Below are positions 29,720-60,823 of a DNA stretch of 64,000 nucleotides, piece after piece. The translations under genes and the position numbers were made by a program. Numbering within the stretch: position 1 is the stretch's first letter; every line of letters starts with the position of its first letter. The DNA comes from Minisyncoccia bacterium (GTDB lineage Bacteria; Patescibacteriota; Minisyncoccia; Phycocordibacterales; UBA9973): assembly GCA_965656375.1 (NCBI GenBank), contig CBFHKH010000001.1, forward strand, positions 644,291 to 708,290. The letters run 5' to 3'. The notes under the pieces are model-generated. The model was not told the DNA's origin, searched no databases, and saw only the letters and a list, made by a program, of their open reading frames with translations.

Positions 29720-30709
29720 TTATGGAGTGTATTCAAATCCTAAGTGTTCGTATCCTTTTTGTGTAACAGTTCGGCCACGCGTAGTACGCTCTAGGAGTCC
29801 GAGCTGAATAAGATATGGTTCGATTACTTCTTCAATCGTTGCTTCCTCTTCACTTGTTGCAGCAGCAATAGTCTTGAGTCCTACTGGTCCACCATCAAAT
29901 TTTGAGATTATTACCTCAAGGATTCTTCTGTCAGAAGCTGAAAGTCCCAGTTCATCGATCTCAAGAAGTGCAAGAGCTTTTTTTACGGCATCTTTTGAAA
30001 GTGGCATCTTATGTACTTGTGCATAATCGCGACAACGCTTGAGGAAATAATTGGCGGTTCGAGGTGTGAATCGTGCACGGGACGCAATTTCATCGAGTGC
30101 ATCATCGTCGAGTGTAACTCCCAATATTTCTCCTGAACGTGCAAGAATTTTCTTTATCTCATCATGAGTATAGAATTCGAGTCGAAATACTCCGCCAGAA
30201 AAACGTGAACGAAGCGGGGAAGAGAGAAGTGCGATGCGAGTTGTAGCAGCGATGAGCGTAAAGGGTGGAAGCTCGAGCTGGATAGTACGGGCTGATGGGC
30301 CCTTGCCGATAATAATATCAAGAACACCGGACTCCATCGCAGGATAGAGAACTTCTTCAACCATTTTGTTGAGTCGGTGAATCTCGTCGATAAAGACAAT
30401 ATCGCCAGGAGCAAGATTGGTAAGTATTGAGGCGAGGTCCCCAACCTTTTCAATAGCAGGCCCCGATGTAATTTTGATCTGTCTCTTTGTTTCGCGAGCT
30501 ACAAGATGGGCAAGTGTAGTCTTACCGAGGCCTGGAGGACCATAAAAAAGTATATGTTCCGCAGGATGTGAGCGTTCTTCGGCTGCTGTAAGGAGAATTT
30601 TGAGGTTTGCCTTAATATTTTCTTGACCAATGTAATCATTCCAAACACTTGGACGGAGAGTTTGGTCCAGGAATCCCTCATCTTTTGTTGTGGAATCAAT
30701 GCTTGACAT
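29720..30709 (-). CDS. ruvB: Holliday junction branch migration ATPase RuvB
   Basis: LRPSVWNDYIGQE...HILFYGPPGLGKTTLAHLVARE; sensor motifs; C-terminal winged helix. Confidence 0.92.
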   Translation of the reverse strand: MSSIDSTTKDEGFLDQTLRPSVWNDYIGQENIKANLKILLTAAEERSHPAEHILFYGPPGLGKTTLAHLVARETKRQIKITSGPAIEKVGDLASILTNLAPGDIVFIDEIHRLNKMVEEVLYPAMESGVLDIIIGKGPSARTIQLELPPFTLIAATTRIALLSSPLRSRFSGGVFRLEFYTHDEIKKILARSGEILGVTLDDDALDEIASRARFTPRTANYFLKRCRDYAQVHKMPLSKDAVKKALALLEIDELGLSASDRRILEVIISKFDGGPVGLKTIAAATSEEEATIEEVIEPYLIQLGLLERTTRGRTVTQKGYEHLGFEYTP

Positions 30710-30977
30710 TATTTTTTTAGTATGCTATACTCTCTCTAGAAATAAATTATCTTGTTTTACTAAATTAGTATAGCATTTAAGTGAAGAGGACATAAATCTC
30801 TAAGCAATCAGCCCCGTGCTCTATATATGTGCGTAGGACGTTCTGGTTGTATTTATACGTACTGGGTCTATCCTGTAATCATACGTTACTTTAATTACGC
30901 ATGTTTTTAAAGGATTGTTTAGAGATTTATGTCCTTTTTTGTACCTCATTCTTTTAAAATTTAAAAACGTTTCAATT

Positions 30978-31457
30978 ATGAAAAAAATTCTGTTAATGCT
31001 CGTAATTTTTTCAATTTCTATTAATGAAGCTATATCTCAATTCACCGTCCGTGTTGGAGGCGGGGCAGTAATGGCCAAGAATTTTACCTACAAAGGAAAT
31101 CTTTTCCTGGACGTGGGCGCAGGGGTTATGTACAGAGACCATATGTACGTAAACCAACGTTTTTCAGTTGAAGGTAACATGCGGGTTACTTTGTCCGCTC
31201 GCAATTTTTCGAATATTGGAGGGGCTGTAACATACGGCCACCAAATGAAAAAGTGGACACTGTCAGCTGTTGTCGGTTATGCATATAATGTAATGTCCAG
31301 CAACAATGACAAAACTGAGAAAGATGTTAGCAATACCGTTTTTTCCTACGGAGGAAGGATAAGCTACAAAGATTTTTGGTATTTACAAGGAACAACCAGC
31401 ACTAATGCAGATCAAAAAAGGATTCAAATAGGGGCCGGCTTCCATTTCACCTTTTAA
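30978..31457 (+). CDS. small beta-barrel outer-membrane-protein-like protein (signal peptide, alternating amphipathic strands, C-terminal aromatic)
   Basis: MKKILLMLVIFSISINEAISQ signal; Gly/Tyr-rich alternating pattern; ends GAGFHFTF. Codons locally richer in G/C than surrounding genes. Confidence 0.45.
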   Translation: MKKILLMLVIFSISINEAISQFTVRVGGGAVMAKNFTYKGNLFLDVGAGVMYRDHMYVNQRFSVEGNMRVTLSARNFSNIGGAVTYGHQMKKWTLSAVVGYAYNVMSSNNDKTEKDVSNTVFSYGGRISYKDFWYLQGTTSTNADQKRIQIGAGFHFTF

Positions 31458-31511
31458 AATTTTTAAAACTAAAAACAAAAAGCATCTCTTTATGAGATGC
31501 TTTTTACTATC

Positions 31512-33266
31512 TTATTCTTCGTAGAAATCGACGACCGATCCAACTTCTGAATATGAGGTGATACCTTTGAGAACTTTTACAATGCCATCTTCACGCATAT
31601 CAAGCGAGCCTTGATTTTGCGCCACTTCCTTGATTTGGCGTTCGCTTGGATTCTGTGGAATGAGTGCTTCGATTGCTGCATCGTTGTGAATCGCTTCAAA
31701 GATTCCCATTCGTCCTTTGTAGCCAGTGTTATTGCATTCGAGGCATCCGACTGGCTCATATATCTTGATCGGAGCATTCATATCAACGCCATACGTATTG
31801 AAATCCTTTCCATGAGCCTTGGCATTATCAGCTACGCTTTTTATAATACGCATTTCTTCATCAGTAATCTTTTCTTCTTTCTTGCAATGGACGCAGAGTT
31901 TACGTACTAAACGTTGTGCGATTGAGAGCGACAATGCTGAAACAAGTATCTTTGGATTAACATCAAGGTCGATCAAGCGGGGGATAACACCCGCTGCATT
32001 GTTTGTGTGGAGGGTCGAGAAAACGAGGTGACCAGTAAGCGCAGATTCAACTGCGATCTTTGCTGTTTCTCCGTCTCGAATTTCTCCAACCATGATCACG
32101 TCAGGATCCTGACGAAGTGCAGAGCGTAGTCCTTCGAGGAATGTATAGCCTTTCTCGCTTTCTGTTTGGGTTTGGGTTATGCCCGCGAGGTGATATTCGA
32201 TCGGGTCTTCGATGGTGATGATCTTGATCTCTGTCGAATAAATCTTTTGGAGGAAAGAATAAAGCGTCGTAGTCTTACCGGAACCAGTCGGACCCGTAAG
32301 GAGTATCATTCCGTTTGGTTTCTTGATTTCACGCATAAATATCTCAAAAAGCTTTGACTCGATTCCCATATCTTCAAGTTTTACTTGGATAGATTTTGGA
32401 TTTAAGATACGCATCACGATTGACTCGCCGTATGCACCTGGAATGAGTGAGACGCGAAGGCTGATCTCATCTTTATCGAGAAATATACTGAAACGGCCAT
32501 CTTGGGCGATAGATTGCGCGGTAATTTTGAGACCGGAAAGGAGTTTAATGCGAGAATTTATGAACTTATGAATGACTGGAGGAATTTCCATTACGGTATG
32601 AAGAATTCCGTCGAGGCGAAAACGAAGGCGGACTGTATTTTCTTCAGGTTCGAAGTGAAGGTCAGATGCATTGATCGCGATAGCACCAGCAAGTGCGATC
32701 TCAAGGATATGCGATGTCATATGCGATTTATCTTTTTGTACTTCAATAATGGATTTCTTGATATCTTCGATATTTTTTATGTTTTCCATTATTCGCTTGA
32801 GAGATTCACCCGATATCCCCATGCTTCCTGCTTGTGACTCGGATGCATATGAGATTTCTTTGTAGCGATCCCATGCTTTCTCGAGACTCGCAAGTGATGC
32901 CATATAAAAGTGGGGAGTATACCCATGTTCTTGGTAGTACTCGGTCATTCTATCGAGTCTGTCCGGCTGTGGAGAATGCACTGCGATATGAACATCTTTA
33001 CCGAGCATTTTGAACGGCGCAACTTGTTCTTCCCGGGCATTTTTTTCGAGAATTGTGCGAAGAGCGTTGTTGTCTATGGGCATGCTTGCGAGGTTTACAG
33101 CAGGGATACCATATTTAGACTCTGCAAGAACTTGCACTAAGTCCTCTTCTTCTTGCCTTCGTAAATCAGCGAGATTTTTATCCTCTTTATCTTCATCAAA
33201 AATGACTGTCATATGAGCCTTATTATAGCGTACGGAGCCTATATATAGGTCCTTGACATTTGTCAA
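31512..33266 (-). CDS. pilB: type IV pilus assembly / type II secretion ATPase PilB/GspE
   Basis: Walker A LLTGPTGSGKTTTLYS, Asp box, Walker B/His box, and a tetracysteine CVHC...CLEC motif. Confidence 0.9.
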   Translation of the reverse strand: MTNVKDLYIGSVRYNKAHMTVIFDEDKEDKNLADLRRQEEEDLVQVLAESKYGIPAVNLASMPIDNNALRTILEKNAREEQVAPFKMLGKDVHIAVHSPQPDRLDRMTEYYQEHGYTPHFYMASLASLEKAWDRYKEISYASESQAGSMGISGESLKRIMENIKNIEDIKKSIIEVQKDKSHMTSHILEIALAGAIAINASDLHFEPEENTVRLRFRLDGILHTVMEIPPVIHKFINSRIKLLSGLKITAQSIAQDGRFSIFLDKDEISLRVSLIPGAYGESIVMRILNPKSIQVKLEDMGIESKLFEIFMREIKKPNGMILLTGPTGSGKTTTLYSFLQKIYSTEIKIITIEDPIEYHLAGITQTQTESEKGYTFLEGLRSALRQDPDVIMVGEIRDGETAKIAVESALTGHLVFSTLHTNNAAGVIPRLIDLDVNPKILVSALSLSIAQRLVRKLCVHCKKEEKITDEEMRIIKSVADNAKAHGKDFNTYGVDMNAPIKIYEPVGCLECNNTGYKGRMGIFEAIHNDAAIEALIPQNPSERQIKEVAQNQGSLDMREDGIVKVLKGITSYSEVGSVVDFYEE

Positions 33267-33413
33267 GCATTATGATATGATACTGGCAAATGGGTTTTCT
33301 CTAGTTAGTGATTGTTTCCACATGTTTTTCTCCGTTCCTGAGGAGAATATGTGGAAATAATCACTCAACATATAGAAAAATAAATTTTAAACAAATTTTA
33401 TAAACCCAACATT

Positions 33414-34370
33414 ATGAAGCACATTGTAATTATGATTTTAGCCCTCTTATTGTTGGGCAAATCAACAAACGCACAAGTTCAGAACAAAGGCCAATGGACC
33501 GTATTCGAAAACAATAAGTACCGTCCGACATTGGATGATATTGTTCAAATTGCCAAAGGTATGCCGCACATGAAGGATGGAGGCTACTACAAACTTAAGA
33601 ACGGAGAAAAATTTTGGGTTTTCTGTCCTGAAAAATGGACACCCTTAATGCAACAAATCCTATCAAAAGTAAAAGGGTCACCAGTGACCGATGTAGCAGC
33701 CGAGCTTGCCACAGGTAAGATCATACCCTGGGATGACAACATTTCAACGAAAACCCGCAACTACGCAGTTACAAATTGCAAAGTGTGGATTGTAGATGAA
33801 AATTATGGAGGAGGAGACGATGTTGACGGGTTGAATTACCTCGGATACATGGTTTTAAAAACCTTCCATGCATGTTGTAATCCTGAGGATCCTAAAATTG
33901 CAGCTTCCATTTCTGGTATTGCGAACGATATTCCTGGAGATTCTGTTGTGACTTTATATGGTTCGAATGGTCAACCCATTCAAATCACATTTAGTCCGCA
34001 AATAACAGTAAATGGTGGCGACGCTACCGCTACTGTAAATGGATCTGGAAATAGTACTAACGATATCAAAATTGAAACACCTGAGGAATCATTCGAAGGT
34101 GGCTCGACTGACTACAAAGACGAACCAGAAGATCGTCCAGTGTACAGGAAGGTTTGCAGGCCCCAACCGCAATTCGGACGGCCGGCACCAAGGTATGTAA
34201 AAGTATACAGACCTAAACCTCGTCCAATGTACCGTCAAAGACCGCAACAGCAACCAAGAGGGTATATGGGAAATCCACGTGCTGGAGTTACAACAACTAA
34301 CGGCCGTGGCTCTATGGGTGATGGTGCAGGAAGCAACAATGGCAACGAAGGTGGTAGCCGGGAAAACTAA
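33414..34370 (+). CDS. secreted hypothetical protein with Pro/Arg/Gln-rich low-complexity C-terminus
   Basis: Signal MKHIVIMILALLLLGKSTNAQ. C-terminus RPQPQFGRPAPRYVKVYRPKPRPMYRQRPQQQPRGY, encoded by locally GC-richer DNA. Confidence 0.45.
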   Translation: MKHIVIMILALLLLGKSTNAQVQNKGQWTVFENNKYRPTLDDIVQIAKGMPHMKDGGYYKLKNGEKFWVFCPEKWTPLMQQILSKVKGSPVTDVAAELATGKIIPWDDNISTKTRNYAVTNCKVWIVDENYGGGDDVDGLNYLGYMVLKTFHACCNPEDPKIAASISGIANDIPGDSVVTLYGSNGQPIQITFSPQITVNGGDATATVNGSGNSTNDIKIETPEESFEGGSTDYKDEPEDRPVYRKVCRPQPQFGRPAPRYVKVYRPKPRPMYRQRPQQQPRGYMGNPRAGVTTTNGRGSMGDGAGSNNGNEGGSREN

Positions 34371-34495: not shown

Positions 34496-36484
34496 ATGAA
34501 AAATTATATGAAAAAAATAATAGTCGGATTTTCAGCGCTTGCGCTCCTTTTCATCGGAGCAAATAGTGCAGTTGCTTCAGGGCCATTCAATGGTCAAGCT
34601 GGAGATTGTTCACCTACCATCGGAATAGGTAACTATTCTACTGGTAACATTCCACGTGACGGATATGGTTGCTGGACTGCGAGTTCTATAACAGCAGGCC
34701 CTGGCGACACTATCAATGTCGGAATGTATTATCATAACAATACGAATAGCACGCTTTCAAATGTGAGAGCAGTCGTTTCTCGATCTGGATCAGGTCCAGC
34801 AAATTCGTACTCATTTACAGGAACTCTTTCTTCAAGTCAGGGAACACAAACATTGGGTACAGTAACATTGAACCTTTCAAGTTCACAGACACTGACCTAT
34901 AGTTCTACACATCTTATGAAGGGGAAGAATGCAGTTCTTTCTGATACAGATACTTCTGTAGTAACAAATGAAGGAGGAATAGATATCGGCAGTGTCCCTC
35001 CAGGTTGGGATGATTATGGTACTGTTATCTTTGTTTACAAGGTTGGTACAAACAGTAATACAAATGACTGTGTCATCAACAACTTCACTATCAATGGTGG
35101 AAGTTCAACAAATATTTCATCAGGTAACTCTGCAACTCTTAACTGGAATACATCTGGTTGTACATCAGTAAACGTTTCAGGTCCGAACTTCTCAAGTTCA
35201 AGTCCAAGTGATTCACGAACAGTATATCCAAATTATTCAGGTGACTACACACTTACCGCATATAGCTCAACTGGAGGAACTCAAACTCGAACTGTCCATG
35301 TGTATGTAAATGACAACAATACGTACTGTACAATTTCAAACTTCACCGTTAATGGTTCGAGCACTGCAAATATCGCATCAGGTAGCCCTGTTACTCTTTC
35401 ATGGAGTACAAACGGATACAACTCAGTTACAGTTTCAGGTCCGAACTTCTCAAGTTCAAACCTAAGTGATACACGTACTATATACCCAAATATTTCTGGC
35501 CAGTATACTATCACAGCAAGCGGATCAAACTGTCAGAATAACTACCAGACTCGGGTGGTATATGTAAACGTAACTACTATTCAGCCACCAGTTATCAATG
35601 ATTGTGCAGTTACAACACTTGCGACAAATATTAATCAGAACTCTGCAATACTTAACGGTCTTCTTTCGAACTCAAGTGGTATCTCATACTTCCAGTACGG
35701 TACAACTGTTAACTTGGGCTCGCAGACAGTATCACGTGTAGGATCAGGTACATTTAGCGAAGTGATCACAGGTCTTCTTCCGAATACTATCTACTACTTC
35801 CGTTTCGTATCGCAGTGTGGAAACGGTCTCTCATACGGTCAAACACAGGTATTCCGTACACTCGGAGCAGTTACCACGACAACAAATACCGTACGTGTTG
35901 TTCAAGGTACAACAGTCATTGGTACACAGTCACCAATCATGCTTAAGATCGAAAACAGATACCAGCAGATCGGTGTAGGTGATATCGTTGATTACACAGT
36001 GACATACAAAAACATCGGTAAGACGCTTCTTACACGTCCAGTTCTTCAGGTCATCCTCCCACCAGGAATCACAGTTATAAACTCTTCACGAGGTACATAT
36101 GCAGCTGACACAAATACACTTACCGTTCAGCTCGAAGATCTCGTTCCAGGAGGTGAGGGAGTTGTATATCTACAGGGTCGCGTTGATCTCATCACATCTG
36201 GCGTTGCTCAGATCGTGACGACAGCAATCCTTGTCTATACAAGCCCAAGTGGTGCGCAAGAAAACGCAATTGCCTATGTGCTCAATAGTCCACGGGACAT
36301 TGGGAATGTGCTCGGTGCATCAGCTTTCTGGTCAGGTTTATGGAATATGGGTCTTATAGGATGGTTACTCCTTATTATCTTGATCCTTCTCATCATTCTC
36401 CTTACTCGAAGATACTATGGTAGTTCATCAGTCGTTCGTACGACAAATCCTGGAGGATCAAGTACAACAACTACTCATTACTAA
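34496..36484 (+). CDS. large surface protein with tandem Ig/FN3-like repeats and C-terminal TM anchor
   Basis: Signal peptide. Two ~85-aa near-identical repeats (CT..NFT.NG.SS.NI.SG...TL.W.T.G..SV.VSGPNFSSS). C-terminal hydrophobic helix followed by RRYY. Confidence 0.5.
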   Translation: MKNYMKKIIVGFSALALLFIGANSAVASGPFNGQAGDCSPTIGIGNYSTGNIPRDGYGCWTASSITAGPGDTINVGMYYHNNTNSTLSNVRAVVSRSGSGPANSYSFTGTLSSSQGTQTLGTVTLNLSSSQTLTYSSTHLMKGKNAVLSDTDTSVVTNEGGIDIGSVPPGWDDYGTVIFVYKVGTNSNTNDCVINNFTINGGSSTNISSGNSATLNWNTSGCTSVNVSGPNFSSSSPSDSRTVYPNYSGDYTLTAYSSTGGTQTRTVHVYVNDNNTYCTISNFTVNGSSTANIASGSPVTLSWSTNGYNSVTVSGPNFSSSNLSDTRTIYPNISGQYTITASGSNCQNNYQTRVVYVNVTTIQPPVINDCAVTTLATNINQNSAILNGLLSNSSGISYFQYGTTVNLGSQTVSRVGSGTFSEVITGLLPNTIYYFRFVSQCGNGLSYGQTQVFRTLGAVTTTTNTVRVVQGTTVIGTQSPIMLKIENRYQQIGVGDIVDYTVTYKNIGKTLLTRPVLQVILPPGITVINSSRGTYAADTNTLTVQLEDLVPGGEGVVYLQGRVDLITSGVAQIVTTAILVYTSPSGAQENAIAYVLNSPRDIGNVLGASAFWSGLWNMGLIGWLLLIILILLIILLTRRYYGSSSVVRTTNPGGSSTTTTHY

Positions 36485-46472: not shown

Positions 46473-47057
46473 TTACTTTCCGCCTAATATCTTAAGCGCT
46501 TCTTTGATTCGAGCGTTGGTTGTATCGATAGAAGCGGGAACTTGCTTGAGAGCATCCCGAGCCTCTACGTGAGAGTACCCGAGAGTCTTGAGTGCCTCGA
46601 GTGCATCACTCTCACCCCTGAGCATCGATGAAGTATTTCCTTCACCGGTATGTGCATGTAATTTATCCCGAAGTTCGAGGACAATCTTCTCCGCTGTTTT
46701 TCTGCCGATGCCAGATACTTTATTTAAATAACTCGTATCACCTGTAGCAATTGCTTTTTTAAGCGTATCAGTTGATGCAACTGCAAGGATGGAGAGTGCT
46801 GATTTAGGACCGATACCTGAGACATCAAGAAGAAGTTCAAAGAATCCGAGTTCATCATTAGTAGTGAACCCGTAGAGATCAATAGAATTCTCTCGAACAG
46901 CAGTATAAATCCACAGTGATACTTTCTCATCCATATGTATGGAATTCATAGTATCGAGTGTAGTAAAAACCTTGTATCCTACTCCTGATACGTCAATAAT
47001 TGCAAATTTATCAGTTTTATATAGGACAGTGCCTACCAGATGTGAAATCATAGCCAC
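46473..47057 (-). CDS. ruvA: Holliday junction DNA helicase RuvA
   Basis: MISHLVGTVLYKTDKFAIIDVSGVGYKV OB-fold; HhH motifs LLDVSGIGPKSA and VSGIGRKTAEKI. Confidence 0.88.
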   Translation of the reverse strand: MAMISHLVGTVLYKTDKFAIIDVSGVGYKVFTTLDTMNSIHMDEKVSLWIYTAVRENSIDLYGFTTNDELGFFELLLDVSGIGPKSALSILAVASTDTLKKAIATGDTSYLNKVSGIGRKTAEKIVLELRDKLHAHTGEGNTSSMLRGESDALEALKTLGYSHVEARDALKQVPASIDTTNARIKEALKILGGK

Positions 47058-59857: not shown

Positions 59858-60823
59858 ATGAAAAAAATCAATTGCACAACGCTTCCGGCTACGCCAGAAG
59901 CAGGCACCGTGTATTATCTTTTGCCACGGAAAGAACCAGACAAATTTTATTATGAAAGAACTGATAGGAATATCGGCTGGATTACAAAAGAAGAACAGGA
60001 GATTTTAAAAAATGCTGTAGTCGGCATTGCAGGATGCGGCGGGATGGGAGGTCTCGTTGCCTCTACGCTTTTACGTCTCGGCGTAGGCGAGATTAGAATT
60101 GCTGATAGTGAATGCTTTGACATCTCAAACCTTAATCGTCAGTACGGAGCTACTCAAAAAACAGTAGGGAAATCAAAAGCCTTCGAAACTGCACGTTTCC
60201 TTCGGGATATCGCCGATGATACGACGATCGTCGTCTATCCAAGCGGTATTACAGAGGAGACTGCTGATTCGTTTACAAACGGTTGCAATATTATCTGCGA
60301 CGAAATAGAATTTTGGGCCGTCGGTTCACGCATCTTACTACATCAAGCAATGCGAGCGTACAAGAGCCTCATACTCAATTCTCCCACAATAGGGCACCGG
60401 GTCTACGTGTTTAAATTTACACACGATTCACTGACTGTAGAATCCATGCTCCATATCGGGTACAAAAGCGCAATTGTCTTACAGCAAAAGATCCAAAGTG
60501 GGAATGCTACAGAAAGTGAGATACATACAGTTATGGATATGATGTTACAATTTGCAGCGCCGGAATTGCCAGAATATTCTCTAGATGAAAGAGAATACAG
60601 CACAGTCGTTGAGGTCAAAAAACGACTTCTGACTGAAACGACGGCTTCTATTATTGCTACGAATCCACCGATGGCATCAGGATTCCTTGCAAATCAAATA
60701 CTGTTTGAACTGCTCAAGGCATCAACGATCAAGAGGAACTTCGTCACTGTACCACGTATGCCTGGATATTTGATGTTTGATGCAGGATTATTCATTACTA
60801 AAAAAAAGGAGGGAATACTATGA
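59858..60823 (+). CDS. ThiF/MoeB/HesA-family E1-like adenylyltransferase with N-terminal extension
   Basis: VVGIAGCGGMGGLVASTLLRLGVGEIRIADSECFDISNLNRQ (GxGxxG Rossmann plus NLNRQ). Not TcdA-sized; no rhodanese or JAB domain. Confidence 0.7.
   Translation: MKKINCTTLPATPEAGTVYYLLPRKEPDKFYYERTDRNIGWITKEEQEILKNAVVGIAGCGGMGGLVASTLLRLGVGEIRIADSECFDISNLNRQYGATQKTVGKSKAFETARFLRDIADDTTIVVYPSGITEETADSFTNGCNIICDEIEFWAVGSRILLHQAMRAYKSLILNSPTIGHRVYVFKFTHDSLTVESMLHIGYKSAIVLQQKIQSGNATESEIHTVMDMMLQFAAPELPEYSLDEREYSTVVEVKKRLLTETTASIIATNPPMASGFLANQILFELLKASTIKRNFVTVPRMPGYLMFDAGLFITKKKEGIL

Follow-up and report, generated by a model that had tools for sequence, protein, structure and literature searches.

Two genes for predicted secreted proteins lie on either side of pilB in a 64,000-nucleotide stretch of a Minisyncoccia genome (contig CBFHKH010000001.1, positions 644,291 to 708,290), called the window below, and this locus raises the question of where the two genes come from and what they tell about the envelope of the bacterium that carries them. 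ORF1 (30978-31457, 159 aa) and ORF2 (33414-34370, 318 aa; all positions are those of the window) had been described in a first-pass annotation as compositionally atypical, Bacteroidetes-style genes, the first one resembling an outer-membrane beta-barrel, and transfer from a diderm partner, a chimeric assembly or a diderm cell had been put forward to explain them. Both open reading frames are present at these coordinates. What had been observed about them is partly right, and the interpretation is mostly wrong. The reading favored here, to which we give a probability of about 0.62, is that the two genes are unrelated: ORF2 would be a native occupant of a conserved but variable slot beside pilB, and ORF1 a strain-specific orphan cassette, with neither of them pointing to an outer membrane.

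A search with the PilB protein retrieved 80 related loci. Nearly all of them belong to metagenome-assembled genomes with Candidatus Paceibacteria, Nomurabacteria or Patescibacteria in their title. Because the matches carry these titles, the organism can be assigned, as far as PilB similarity goes, to a Nomurabacteria-like lineage of the Patescibacteria, within the candidate phyla radiation (CPR). The window is AT-rich (~39% GC). The genes around the two ORFs are, in order, PBP, TyrRS, a small ORF, RuvC and RuvB (both on the minus strand), ORF1 (+), PilB (-) and ORF2 (+), followed by a 662-aa DUF11 surface protein (+), TsaE and PolA. Of these, pilB is a core syntenic gene, with 80 orthologous loci.

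For ORF2, the comparison with relatives is straightforward. Four homologues besides itself were found among 5.8 billion clustered proteins, all of them lineage-restricted, and this search gave no match outside the related CPR lineage. They are 34-59% identical to ORF2, and in each of the four contigs examined (L001, L002, L004 and L005) the homologue adjoins pilB in divergent orientation. The succession of pilB, ORF2, giant surface protein and TsaE is kept in L001, L004 and L005, which are the contigs long enough to show it, and contigs of sufficient length also display PBP-TyrRS-RuvC-RuvB before pilB. The giant protein, which combines an N-terminal signal peptide with a C-terminal transmembrane anchor, is thus the syntenic partner of the ORF2 slot. 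When ORF2 is considered as a possible horizontal islet, it is found at the syntenic site in relatives; with such syntenic homologues in related contigs, none of the three explanations initially proposed (acquisition, chimerism, diderm cell) applies to it. Judging from this conserved order, ORF2 is native and vertically inherited.

The five available ORF2 sequences align well over residues ~21-165, with S17 and Q21 invariant, and the C-terminal half is poorly conserved. The AlphaFold2 model, computed from this small alignment, reaches a pLDDT of 80-90 over residues 30-110 and drops to ~30 from residue 153 on. ORF2 has no Pfam match, and nothing in the PDB matched its model with E<1 in a Foldseek comparison. 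The tail is of low complexity throughout, its last ~90 residues being rich in Pro, Arg, Gln and Gly. A similar organization is seen at the same position in 20+ genomes, where the counterparts mostly consist of an MKK-type signal peptide ending in A/S/G-Gln, a varied globular domain and a Pro/Gly/Arg/Gln-rich tail, some of them with a transmembrane helix ahead of the tail. Wherever the slot is kept in the related genomes examined, with PilB identity of ~69% or more, its occupant is exported by Sec. The usual slot protein would combine a signal peptide, followed by Gln, with a globular N-terminal domain that is interchangeable and a tail that is disordered. ORF2 itself would be exported through Sec, cleaved before Gln21 and either displayed or released at the cell surface, and it may be a fast-diversifying cell-surface or host-contact protein acting together with the pilus and the giant adhesin-like protein.

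The signal peptides had been part of the first-pass description of both genes. In both proteins, the first 20 residues do form a Sec-type signal peptide and Gln21 comes next, MKKILLMLVIFSISINEAIS preceding this glutamine in ORF1 and MKHIVIMILALLLLGKSTNA in ORF2, so that this part of the description is confirmed. The signal peptide of ORF1 comprises MKK, a 12-residue hydrophobic core and the AIS/Q site. The class III (prepilin) signal, with Gly before Phe or Met, a hydrophobic helix and Glu5, is absent in both ORFs, and the signals are of the ordinary Sec type. Gln at +1 after cleavage by signal peptidase I, which is then cyclised to pyroglutamate, is known as the Q-rule and has been described as Bacteroidetes-specific (PMC5837995). 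Such an ending is not seen among the other signal-peptide proteins of the window. Inspection of the sequences of the positional counterparts in the 20+ genomes, which lie upstream of pilB in L006-L081, shows, on the other hand, that A/S/G-Gln is the usual end of the signal peptide among ORF2-slot proteins of this lineage. A tally by regular expression over all loci was set aside as too noisy, as it also catches lipoproteins and AQA/A sites. Since Gln at +1 recurs in native slot proteins, it is not evidence of a transfer or of a Bacteroidetes origin, and the label "Bacteroidetes-style" does not suit a feature that is native to the ORF2 slot across this CPR lineage.

Codon usage leads to a similar conclusion. 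The statement that both genes use G/C-ending codons far more than their neighbors is overstated: the GC content at synonymous third positions (GC3s) is 0.369 for ORF1 and 0.345 for ORF2, compared with a window mean of 0.314 (sd 0.044, 54 genes), and the highest value of the window, 0.393-0.394, is that of pilB, located between them. In a simulation where the protein sequence is fixed and codons are drawn from the window usage, the excess of GC3s given the amino-acid sequence is marginal (P=0.06 for ORF1, P=0.04 for ORF2), and 9 of the 54 genes, ORF2 included, fall below P=0.05. What does stand out in this per-gene check is the overall choice of synonymous codons, which deviates in ORF1 (P=2e-4) as in ORF2 (P=4e-4), both being among only five genes with P<0.01. 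The strand-symmetric oligonucleotide signature, compared with windows of the same size, places ORF1 in the top 5-10% and ORF2 in the top 2-4%, with pilB about equally atypical (top 5-6%). The whole neighborhood is thus mildly atypical, and nothing in it is sharply distinct. A coding score derived from a 3-periodic Markov model, trained on the remaining window genes, is ordinary for ORF2 (z=-0.87). The odd codon usage of ORF2 would be a trait of its gene class and no mark of foreign origin. An A/S/G-Gln ending and deviant codons beside pilB are native traits, which is a useful caution for annotation.

The situation of ORF1 is quite different. The gap between RuvB and PilB measures 803 bp here versus ~270 bp in L001, L002, L004 and L005, the extra 530 bp corresponding to ORF1 and its flanks. 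In L006, the closest relative (PilB 90% identical), a terminator comes after the pilB stop codon and leads directly to a conserved RNA, and ORF1 is absent from every related locus that covers this junction, L006 included. This junction (~30945-31510), delimited by the 3' ends of pilB and of the RNA, carries unrelated cargo in other loci (L008, L017, L038, L044, L081 and L084), namely FtsK-gamma, a PNP-family phosphorylase, a RelB/YafQ toxin-antitoxin pair, a kinase-like protein, PaaX-like plus GNAT proteins and an IS200 TnpA. It is a recurrent insertion site for accessory genes. In addition, ORF1 is bracketed by a 17-nt direct repeat (sequences in Table 1), the two copies of which are 500 bp apart and are the only ones in the window, where 0.5 chance matches are expected when up to two mismatches are allowed.

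Searches for relatives of ORF1 retrieved only ORF1 itself, both in a word-indexed search of 5.8 billion protein clusters (E<=10) and when 1.84 billion representatives were scanned in full with HMMER. Phage tblastn, PHROGs and a viral-contig scan were empty, plasmid tblastn returned only noise (E ~8), the sequence matched nothing in the PDB at E<=10, and tblastn against the 80 related loci gave nothing better than E=8.5. The taxonomy of the best matches, which had been suggested as a check of origin, does not lead to a donor: ORF1 has no homologue, and the matches of ORF2 stay within the related CPR. As no homologue exists in the searched databases, the donor of ORF1 is not nameable. Of the proposed single-gene acquisition from a diderm, the acquisition is thus retained, as ORF1 is an insert peculiar to one strain, absent in relatives, at a site of recurrent cargo and flanked by a repeat, and the diderm is not, since no donor was found. 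From these comparisons, ORF1 looks like a strain-specific orphan insertion, in the form of a cassette of ~500 bp. The cassette would have landed at a permissive site, between the two convergent 3' ends of pilB and of the structured RNA, and its product may be an accessory secreted protein that was recently gained or evolves very rapidly.

The RNA that marks the left side of the junction is itself of interest. It has a ~22-bp closing helix followed by a U-run, and includes internal hairpins and the invariant motifs AGGACG, CUGG, UAUCCU and UUACUU. The fold of the single sequence has z=-6.6, and 67 of 85 loci gave an nhmmer match to the RNA, which invariably falls between pilB and ruvB. Compensatory changes affect 24 of the 43 pairs that make up the consensus structure; the proportion of paired cells is 96.3%, as compared with 36-53% in slid controls, and none of 500 shuffles reaches the observed level of covariation. 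The strand of the RNA is fixed by its conserved G.U pairs. A miniature inverted-repeat transposable element (MITE) or DNA palindrome was considered for this upstream element and rejected because it is single-copy and syntenic, with compensatory changes and G.U pairs on one strand only. The RNA has no match in Rfam 15, either at the gathering score or at E<=1; 6S, SRP, RNase P and tmRNA were considered as identities and left aside on this ground, and no literature on CPR 6S RNA was found. A sigma-70-type promoter, which overlaps the start codon of ruvB and is near-invariant in a five-genome alignment, probably drives the RNA. An undescribed, strongly covarying RNA at a landing site of accessory genes is useful to know for annotation.

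A perfect 10-nt inverted repeat, ATGCTATACT/AGTATAGCAT, was also noticed at 30722-30731/30767-30776; its conservation in the closest relatives, seen in L001, is at least partial. Through this repeat, each strand carries the same extended -10 box, directed toward the RNA in one case and toward ruvB in the other; with these orientations, the RNA and ruvB transcripts would overlap at their 5' ends.

The start of ORF1 is consistently defined, as the gene callers agree on the ATG in two assemblies, and the alternative upstream TTG, at 30915, falls within the closing helix of the RNA. Its expression could occur through read-through of the RNA terminator from the strong upstream promoter. This is the simplest route, since ORF1 starts 35-40 nt downstream of the U-run in the same orientation. 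It may also be asked whether ORF1 is a functional gene at all, or a decaying remnant or fortuitous ORF in inserted non-coding DNA. Its coding score is the lowest of the 54 genes (z=-2.55), and the lack of homologues, of ribosome-binding or close promoter signal and of a confident fold goes in the same direction. The in-frame score (-0.01 bits/nt) is nevertheless far above those of the other five frames (-0.12 to -0.19), and a stop-free run of 160-180 codons is improbable at 39% GC (~1e-5 per frame, estimated from base composition). ORF1 also has a canonical signal peptide, an amphipathic periodicity and its own terminator, shared with pilB. A nonfunctional ORF1 therefore appears improbable, and a small Sec-exported, beta-rich product is the more plausible outcome.

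The resemblance of this product to outer-membrane barrels is real but sub-threshold. The best Pfam match of ORF1 is OMP_b-brl (PF13505, E=0.0029), aligned end to end (ORF1 residues 4-157, profile positions 2-175 of 175), the second-best is Phenol_MetA_deg (E=0.1), and both are families of outer-membrane barrels, as is the top NCBIfam match, which covers only the first 35 residues of ORF1. None of eight shuffles of the mature region, in which the native signal peptide was kept, gave an outer-membrane match, nor did the reversed sequence. The strand periodicity and C-terminal aromatic residue noticed initially are both borne out: period-2 hydrophobic alternation is significant (P=0.011 versus 2000 shuffles), and the end of the protein, ...IQIGAGFHFTF, is similar to a beta-signal, with its terminal aromatic and hydrophobic residues at -3, -5, -7 and -9. 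Only two of 563 background proteins (window plus related CPR loci) show this pattern in its strict form, the other one being RuvC. The mature protein is rich in Gly and aromatic residues, with neither Cys nor Pro.

Together with a Gln at +1 that fits the Bacteroidetes Q-rule, these features could be explained if ORF1 were an eight-stranded barrel of outer-membrane type coming from a diderm, plausibly Bacteroidota-like, neighbor or host, and were now, in a cell devoid of outer membrane and BAM, either a neutral passenger or exported and inserted in the outer membrane of that host. This scenario is considered unlikely. The OMP_b-brl score is 18.2 bits for a gathering cut-off of 28.7, i.e., 10 bits under the threshold, the match vanishes once the signal peptide is removed, and shuffled ORF1 sequences reach E=0.03 against unrelated families. 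Homologues are completely missing among billions of proteins, though small Bacteroidota barrels are abundantly sampled. Manual reading of the strands yields nine amphipathic segments, or eight if residues 132-148 are considered as a loop, which leaves an atypically long periplasmic turn of 14 residues, and the all-beta AlphaFold2 model built from the single sequence is uninformative (pLDDT 31). As to the Gln at +1, it is also the norm for native ORF2-slot proteins. The description of ORF1 as "beta-barrel OMP-like" is thus kept as far as resemblance goes, family membership not being established: ORF1 is not filed as a member of OMP_b-brl, and its reading as a barrel, whatever the source, is doubtful. 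A bolder version, that ORF1 is the minimal barrel of a single-membrane episymbiont, exported by Sec and self-inserting into the outer membrane of the host as a pore or anchor, or else a fresh capture from this host, is quite improbable. If true, a fresh capture would identify the host lineage, and a barrel in Patescibacteria would be informative about the contact with diderm hosts and about host-symbiont gene flow; the evidence is below that level.

With the strain-specific cassette as the preferred reading of ORF1, two further explanations are met by evidence from the assembly and from the envelope genes. A chimera of assembly or binning, which would have put diderm DNA in a CPR contig, could account for the mildly atypical composition and for an insert unique to this genome. 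The insert lies within one intergenic region, and both flanks are collinear with relatives, so that a chimera requires two exact breakpoints ~530 bp apart in this single region and is very unlikely. Moreover, a 47.5-kb Logan contig (run ERR15116721), produced by a separate assembler, is organized in the same way, with 100% identity over the 6,480 bp that were compared, the GC content of ORF1 (38%) and its GC3s are inside the range of the organism, and no diderm sequence matches ORF1.

The last explanation, a bacterium that is diderm after all with ORF1 as a native outer-membrane protein, has only the barrel-like features of ORF1 in its favor and is extremely unlikely. ORF1 is missing in all relatives, and is therefore not a conserved component of the envelope. 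No outer-membrane family was recognized among 27 window proteins scanned (64 kb of an 840-kb genome), YidC is of the short form (252 aa), the two genes after the PilM-fusion gene gave no match to a secretin, and the C-terminus of the giant surface protein forms a transmembrane anchor. The window also encodes a TraG/VirB4-type P-loop ATPase. Patescibacteria have been described as lacking an outer membrane (PMC12102498, PMC8871954), and the few CPR cells described so far are monoderm (PMC8871954). Neither ORF1 nor ORF2 is evidence for an outer membrane.

Several points weigh against the picture of a native slot gene and an inserted orphan. Concerning ORF2, tblastn against related loci did not link the slot proteins of other genomes to it, and a BLASTP comparison with one positional counterpart (L010) was without significance (E=4.4 for the tails). 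Homology between tails across the slot was dropped for this reason, with position and architecture being kept; as homology to most counterparts is not demonstrable, the slot family is defined by these two traits, without alignment. The roles proposed above for ORF2 and ORF1 are inferred. Concerning ORF1, the 17-nt repeat is AT-rich and partly palindromic, and thus possibly fortuitous. No donor, mobility gene or integrase accompanies the cassette, hence the term "insertion" relies on comparative absence, and the loss of ORF1 in all sampled relatives is an alternative, less parsimonious. Finally, ORF1 has neither a Shine-Dalgarno sequence nor a close -10 box, as is the case for ~30 of the 54 window genes.

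Table 1. Position of the features discussed, in window coordinates (the slash marks the predicted cleavage site).
Feature	Position	Strand	Basis
Sigma-70-type promoter, TTGACA-17-TATACT with TG extension	30703..30731	+	11/12 consensus positions
Conserved structured RNA, ~160 nt; 3' end at the insertion junction	30785..30945	+	Fold, covariation
Direct repeat of 17 nt, left copy, CTTTTAAAATTTAAAAA	30951..30967	+	Repeat search
ORF1 predicted signal peptide, residues 1-20, AIS/Q (...NEAIS/QFTV)	30978..31037	+	Read from sequence
ORF1 mature region, 139 residues (Q21-F159), and stop codon	31038..31457	+	All-beta Gly/aromatic-rich orphan, ends GFHFTF
Direct repeat of 17 nt, right copy, CTTTTAAAATTTTTAAA, including the ORF1 stop codon	31451..31467	+	Repeat search
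Bidirectional intrinsic terminator hairpin, common to ORF1 (+) and pilB (-)	31474..31508		Sequence scan
pilB, type IV pilus assembly ATPase, 566 aa	31512..33212	-	Pfam T2SSE, E=6e-117
Promoter-like TTGACA-17-TATGAT with TG, in the divergent pilB/ORF2 intergenic region	33253..33281	+	Consensus match only
ORF2 predicted signal peptide, residues 1-20, TNA/Q (...KSTNA/QVQN)	33414..33473	+	Read from sequence
ORF2 conserved N-terminal globular alpha/beta domain, ~residues 21-153	33474..33872	+	Five-sequence alignment; AlphaFold2
ORF2 poorly conserved tail, predicted disordered	33873..34370	+	Alignment; pLDDT ~30
Giant DUF11/CLIPPER-repeat surface protein	34496..36484	+	Pfam DUF11; synteny

A few other observations were made in the window. 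An extended -10 box (TGCTATACT-like) ends 3-14 nt before the start codon of 19 of the 54 genes, for example upstream of 1588, 48166, 54935 and 59096, and for the minus-strand genes 46473-47057 and 49319-50041, where the motif is located just past 47057 and 50041. A Shine-Dalgarno-like sequence was seen in only 5 of the 54 genes. The proximity of these boxes to the start codons, combined with the scarcity of Shine-Dalgarno sequences, suggests that leaderless or near-leaderless mRNAs are widespread in the window. A ThiF-family gene (59858-60823, +) has a deviant codon usage (P=0.001), a raised GC3s and an AT-rich upstream region like that of ORF1, and may be another accessory gene. Two large adjacent paralogues (51025-52920 and 52928-54667, +), both ending in ...CEKCYQQEVI, score low in the coding model, with practically no match in Pfam.

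How the two genes relate to known systems can now be considered. The small eight-stranded barrels (PF13505, "porin family protein", from Bacteroidota and others) share with ORF1 the size class, the Sec signal, a Gly/aromatic-rich composition devoid of Cys, strands with alternating hydrophobicity, a terminal Phe in the C-terminal motif ...GxxFxF and a weak end-to-end profile match. ORF1 differs from them by its score below the cut-off, the absence of homologues, its ambiguous strand count, the lack of a confident structure, and a lineage regarded as devoid of outer membrane and BAM. With Bacteroidetes Q-rule substrates, ORF1, ORF2 and most slot proteins have in common a short MKK-type signal peptide with a small residue followed by Gln at the predicted site, whereas the organisms concerned here are Patescibacteria and the other secreted proteins of the window are without Gln at +1.

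Islets beside stable-RNA genes provide another term of comparison, except that the RNA adjoining ORF1 is undescribed and is neither a tRNA nor a tmRNA. Compared with strain-specific genomic islets in general, ORF1 is unusual in consisting of one 500-bp gene, without integrase or transposase in its vicinity, and in its untraceable donor, and typical in occurring in one genome only, at a junction with varied cargo, between short direct repeats and with atypical coding statistics. ORF2, for its part, can be compared with the hypervariable surface or adhesin loci found near type IV pilus genes in episymbiotic CPR. It departs from them in having a Sec signal instead of a prepilin one and an N-terminal domain without PDB match. 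It resembles them in being secreted and in adjoining pilB and a giant, repeat-rich anchored protein, with an N-terminal domain that, within the slot, diverges fast or is swapped between genomes, as would be expected of host-contact proteins.

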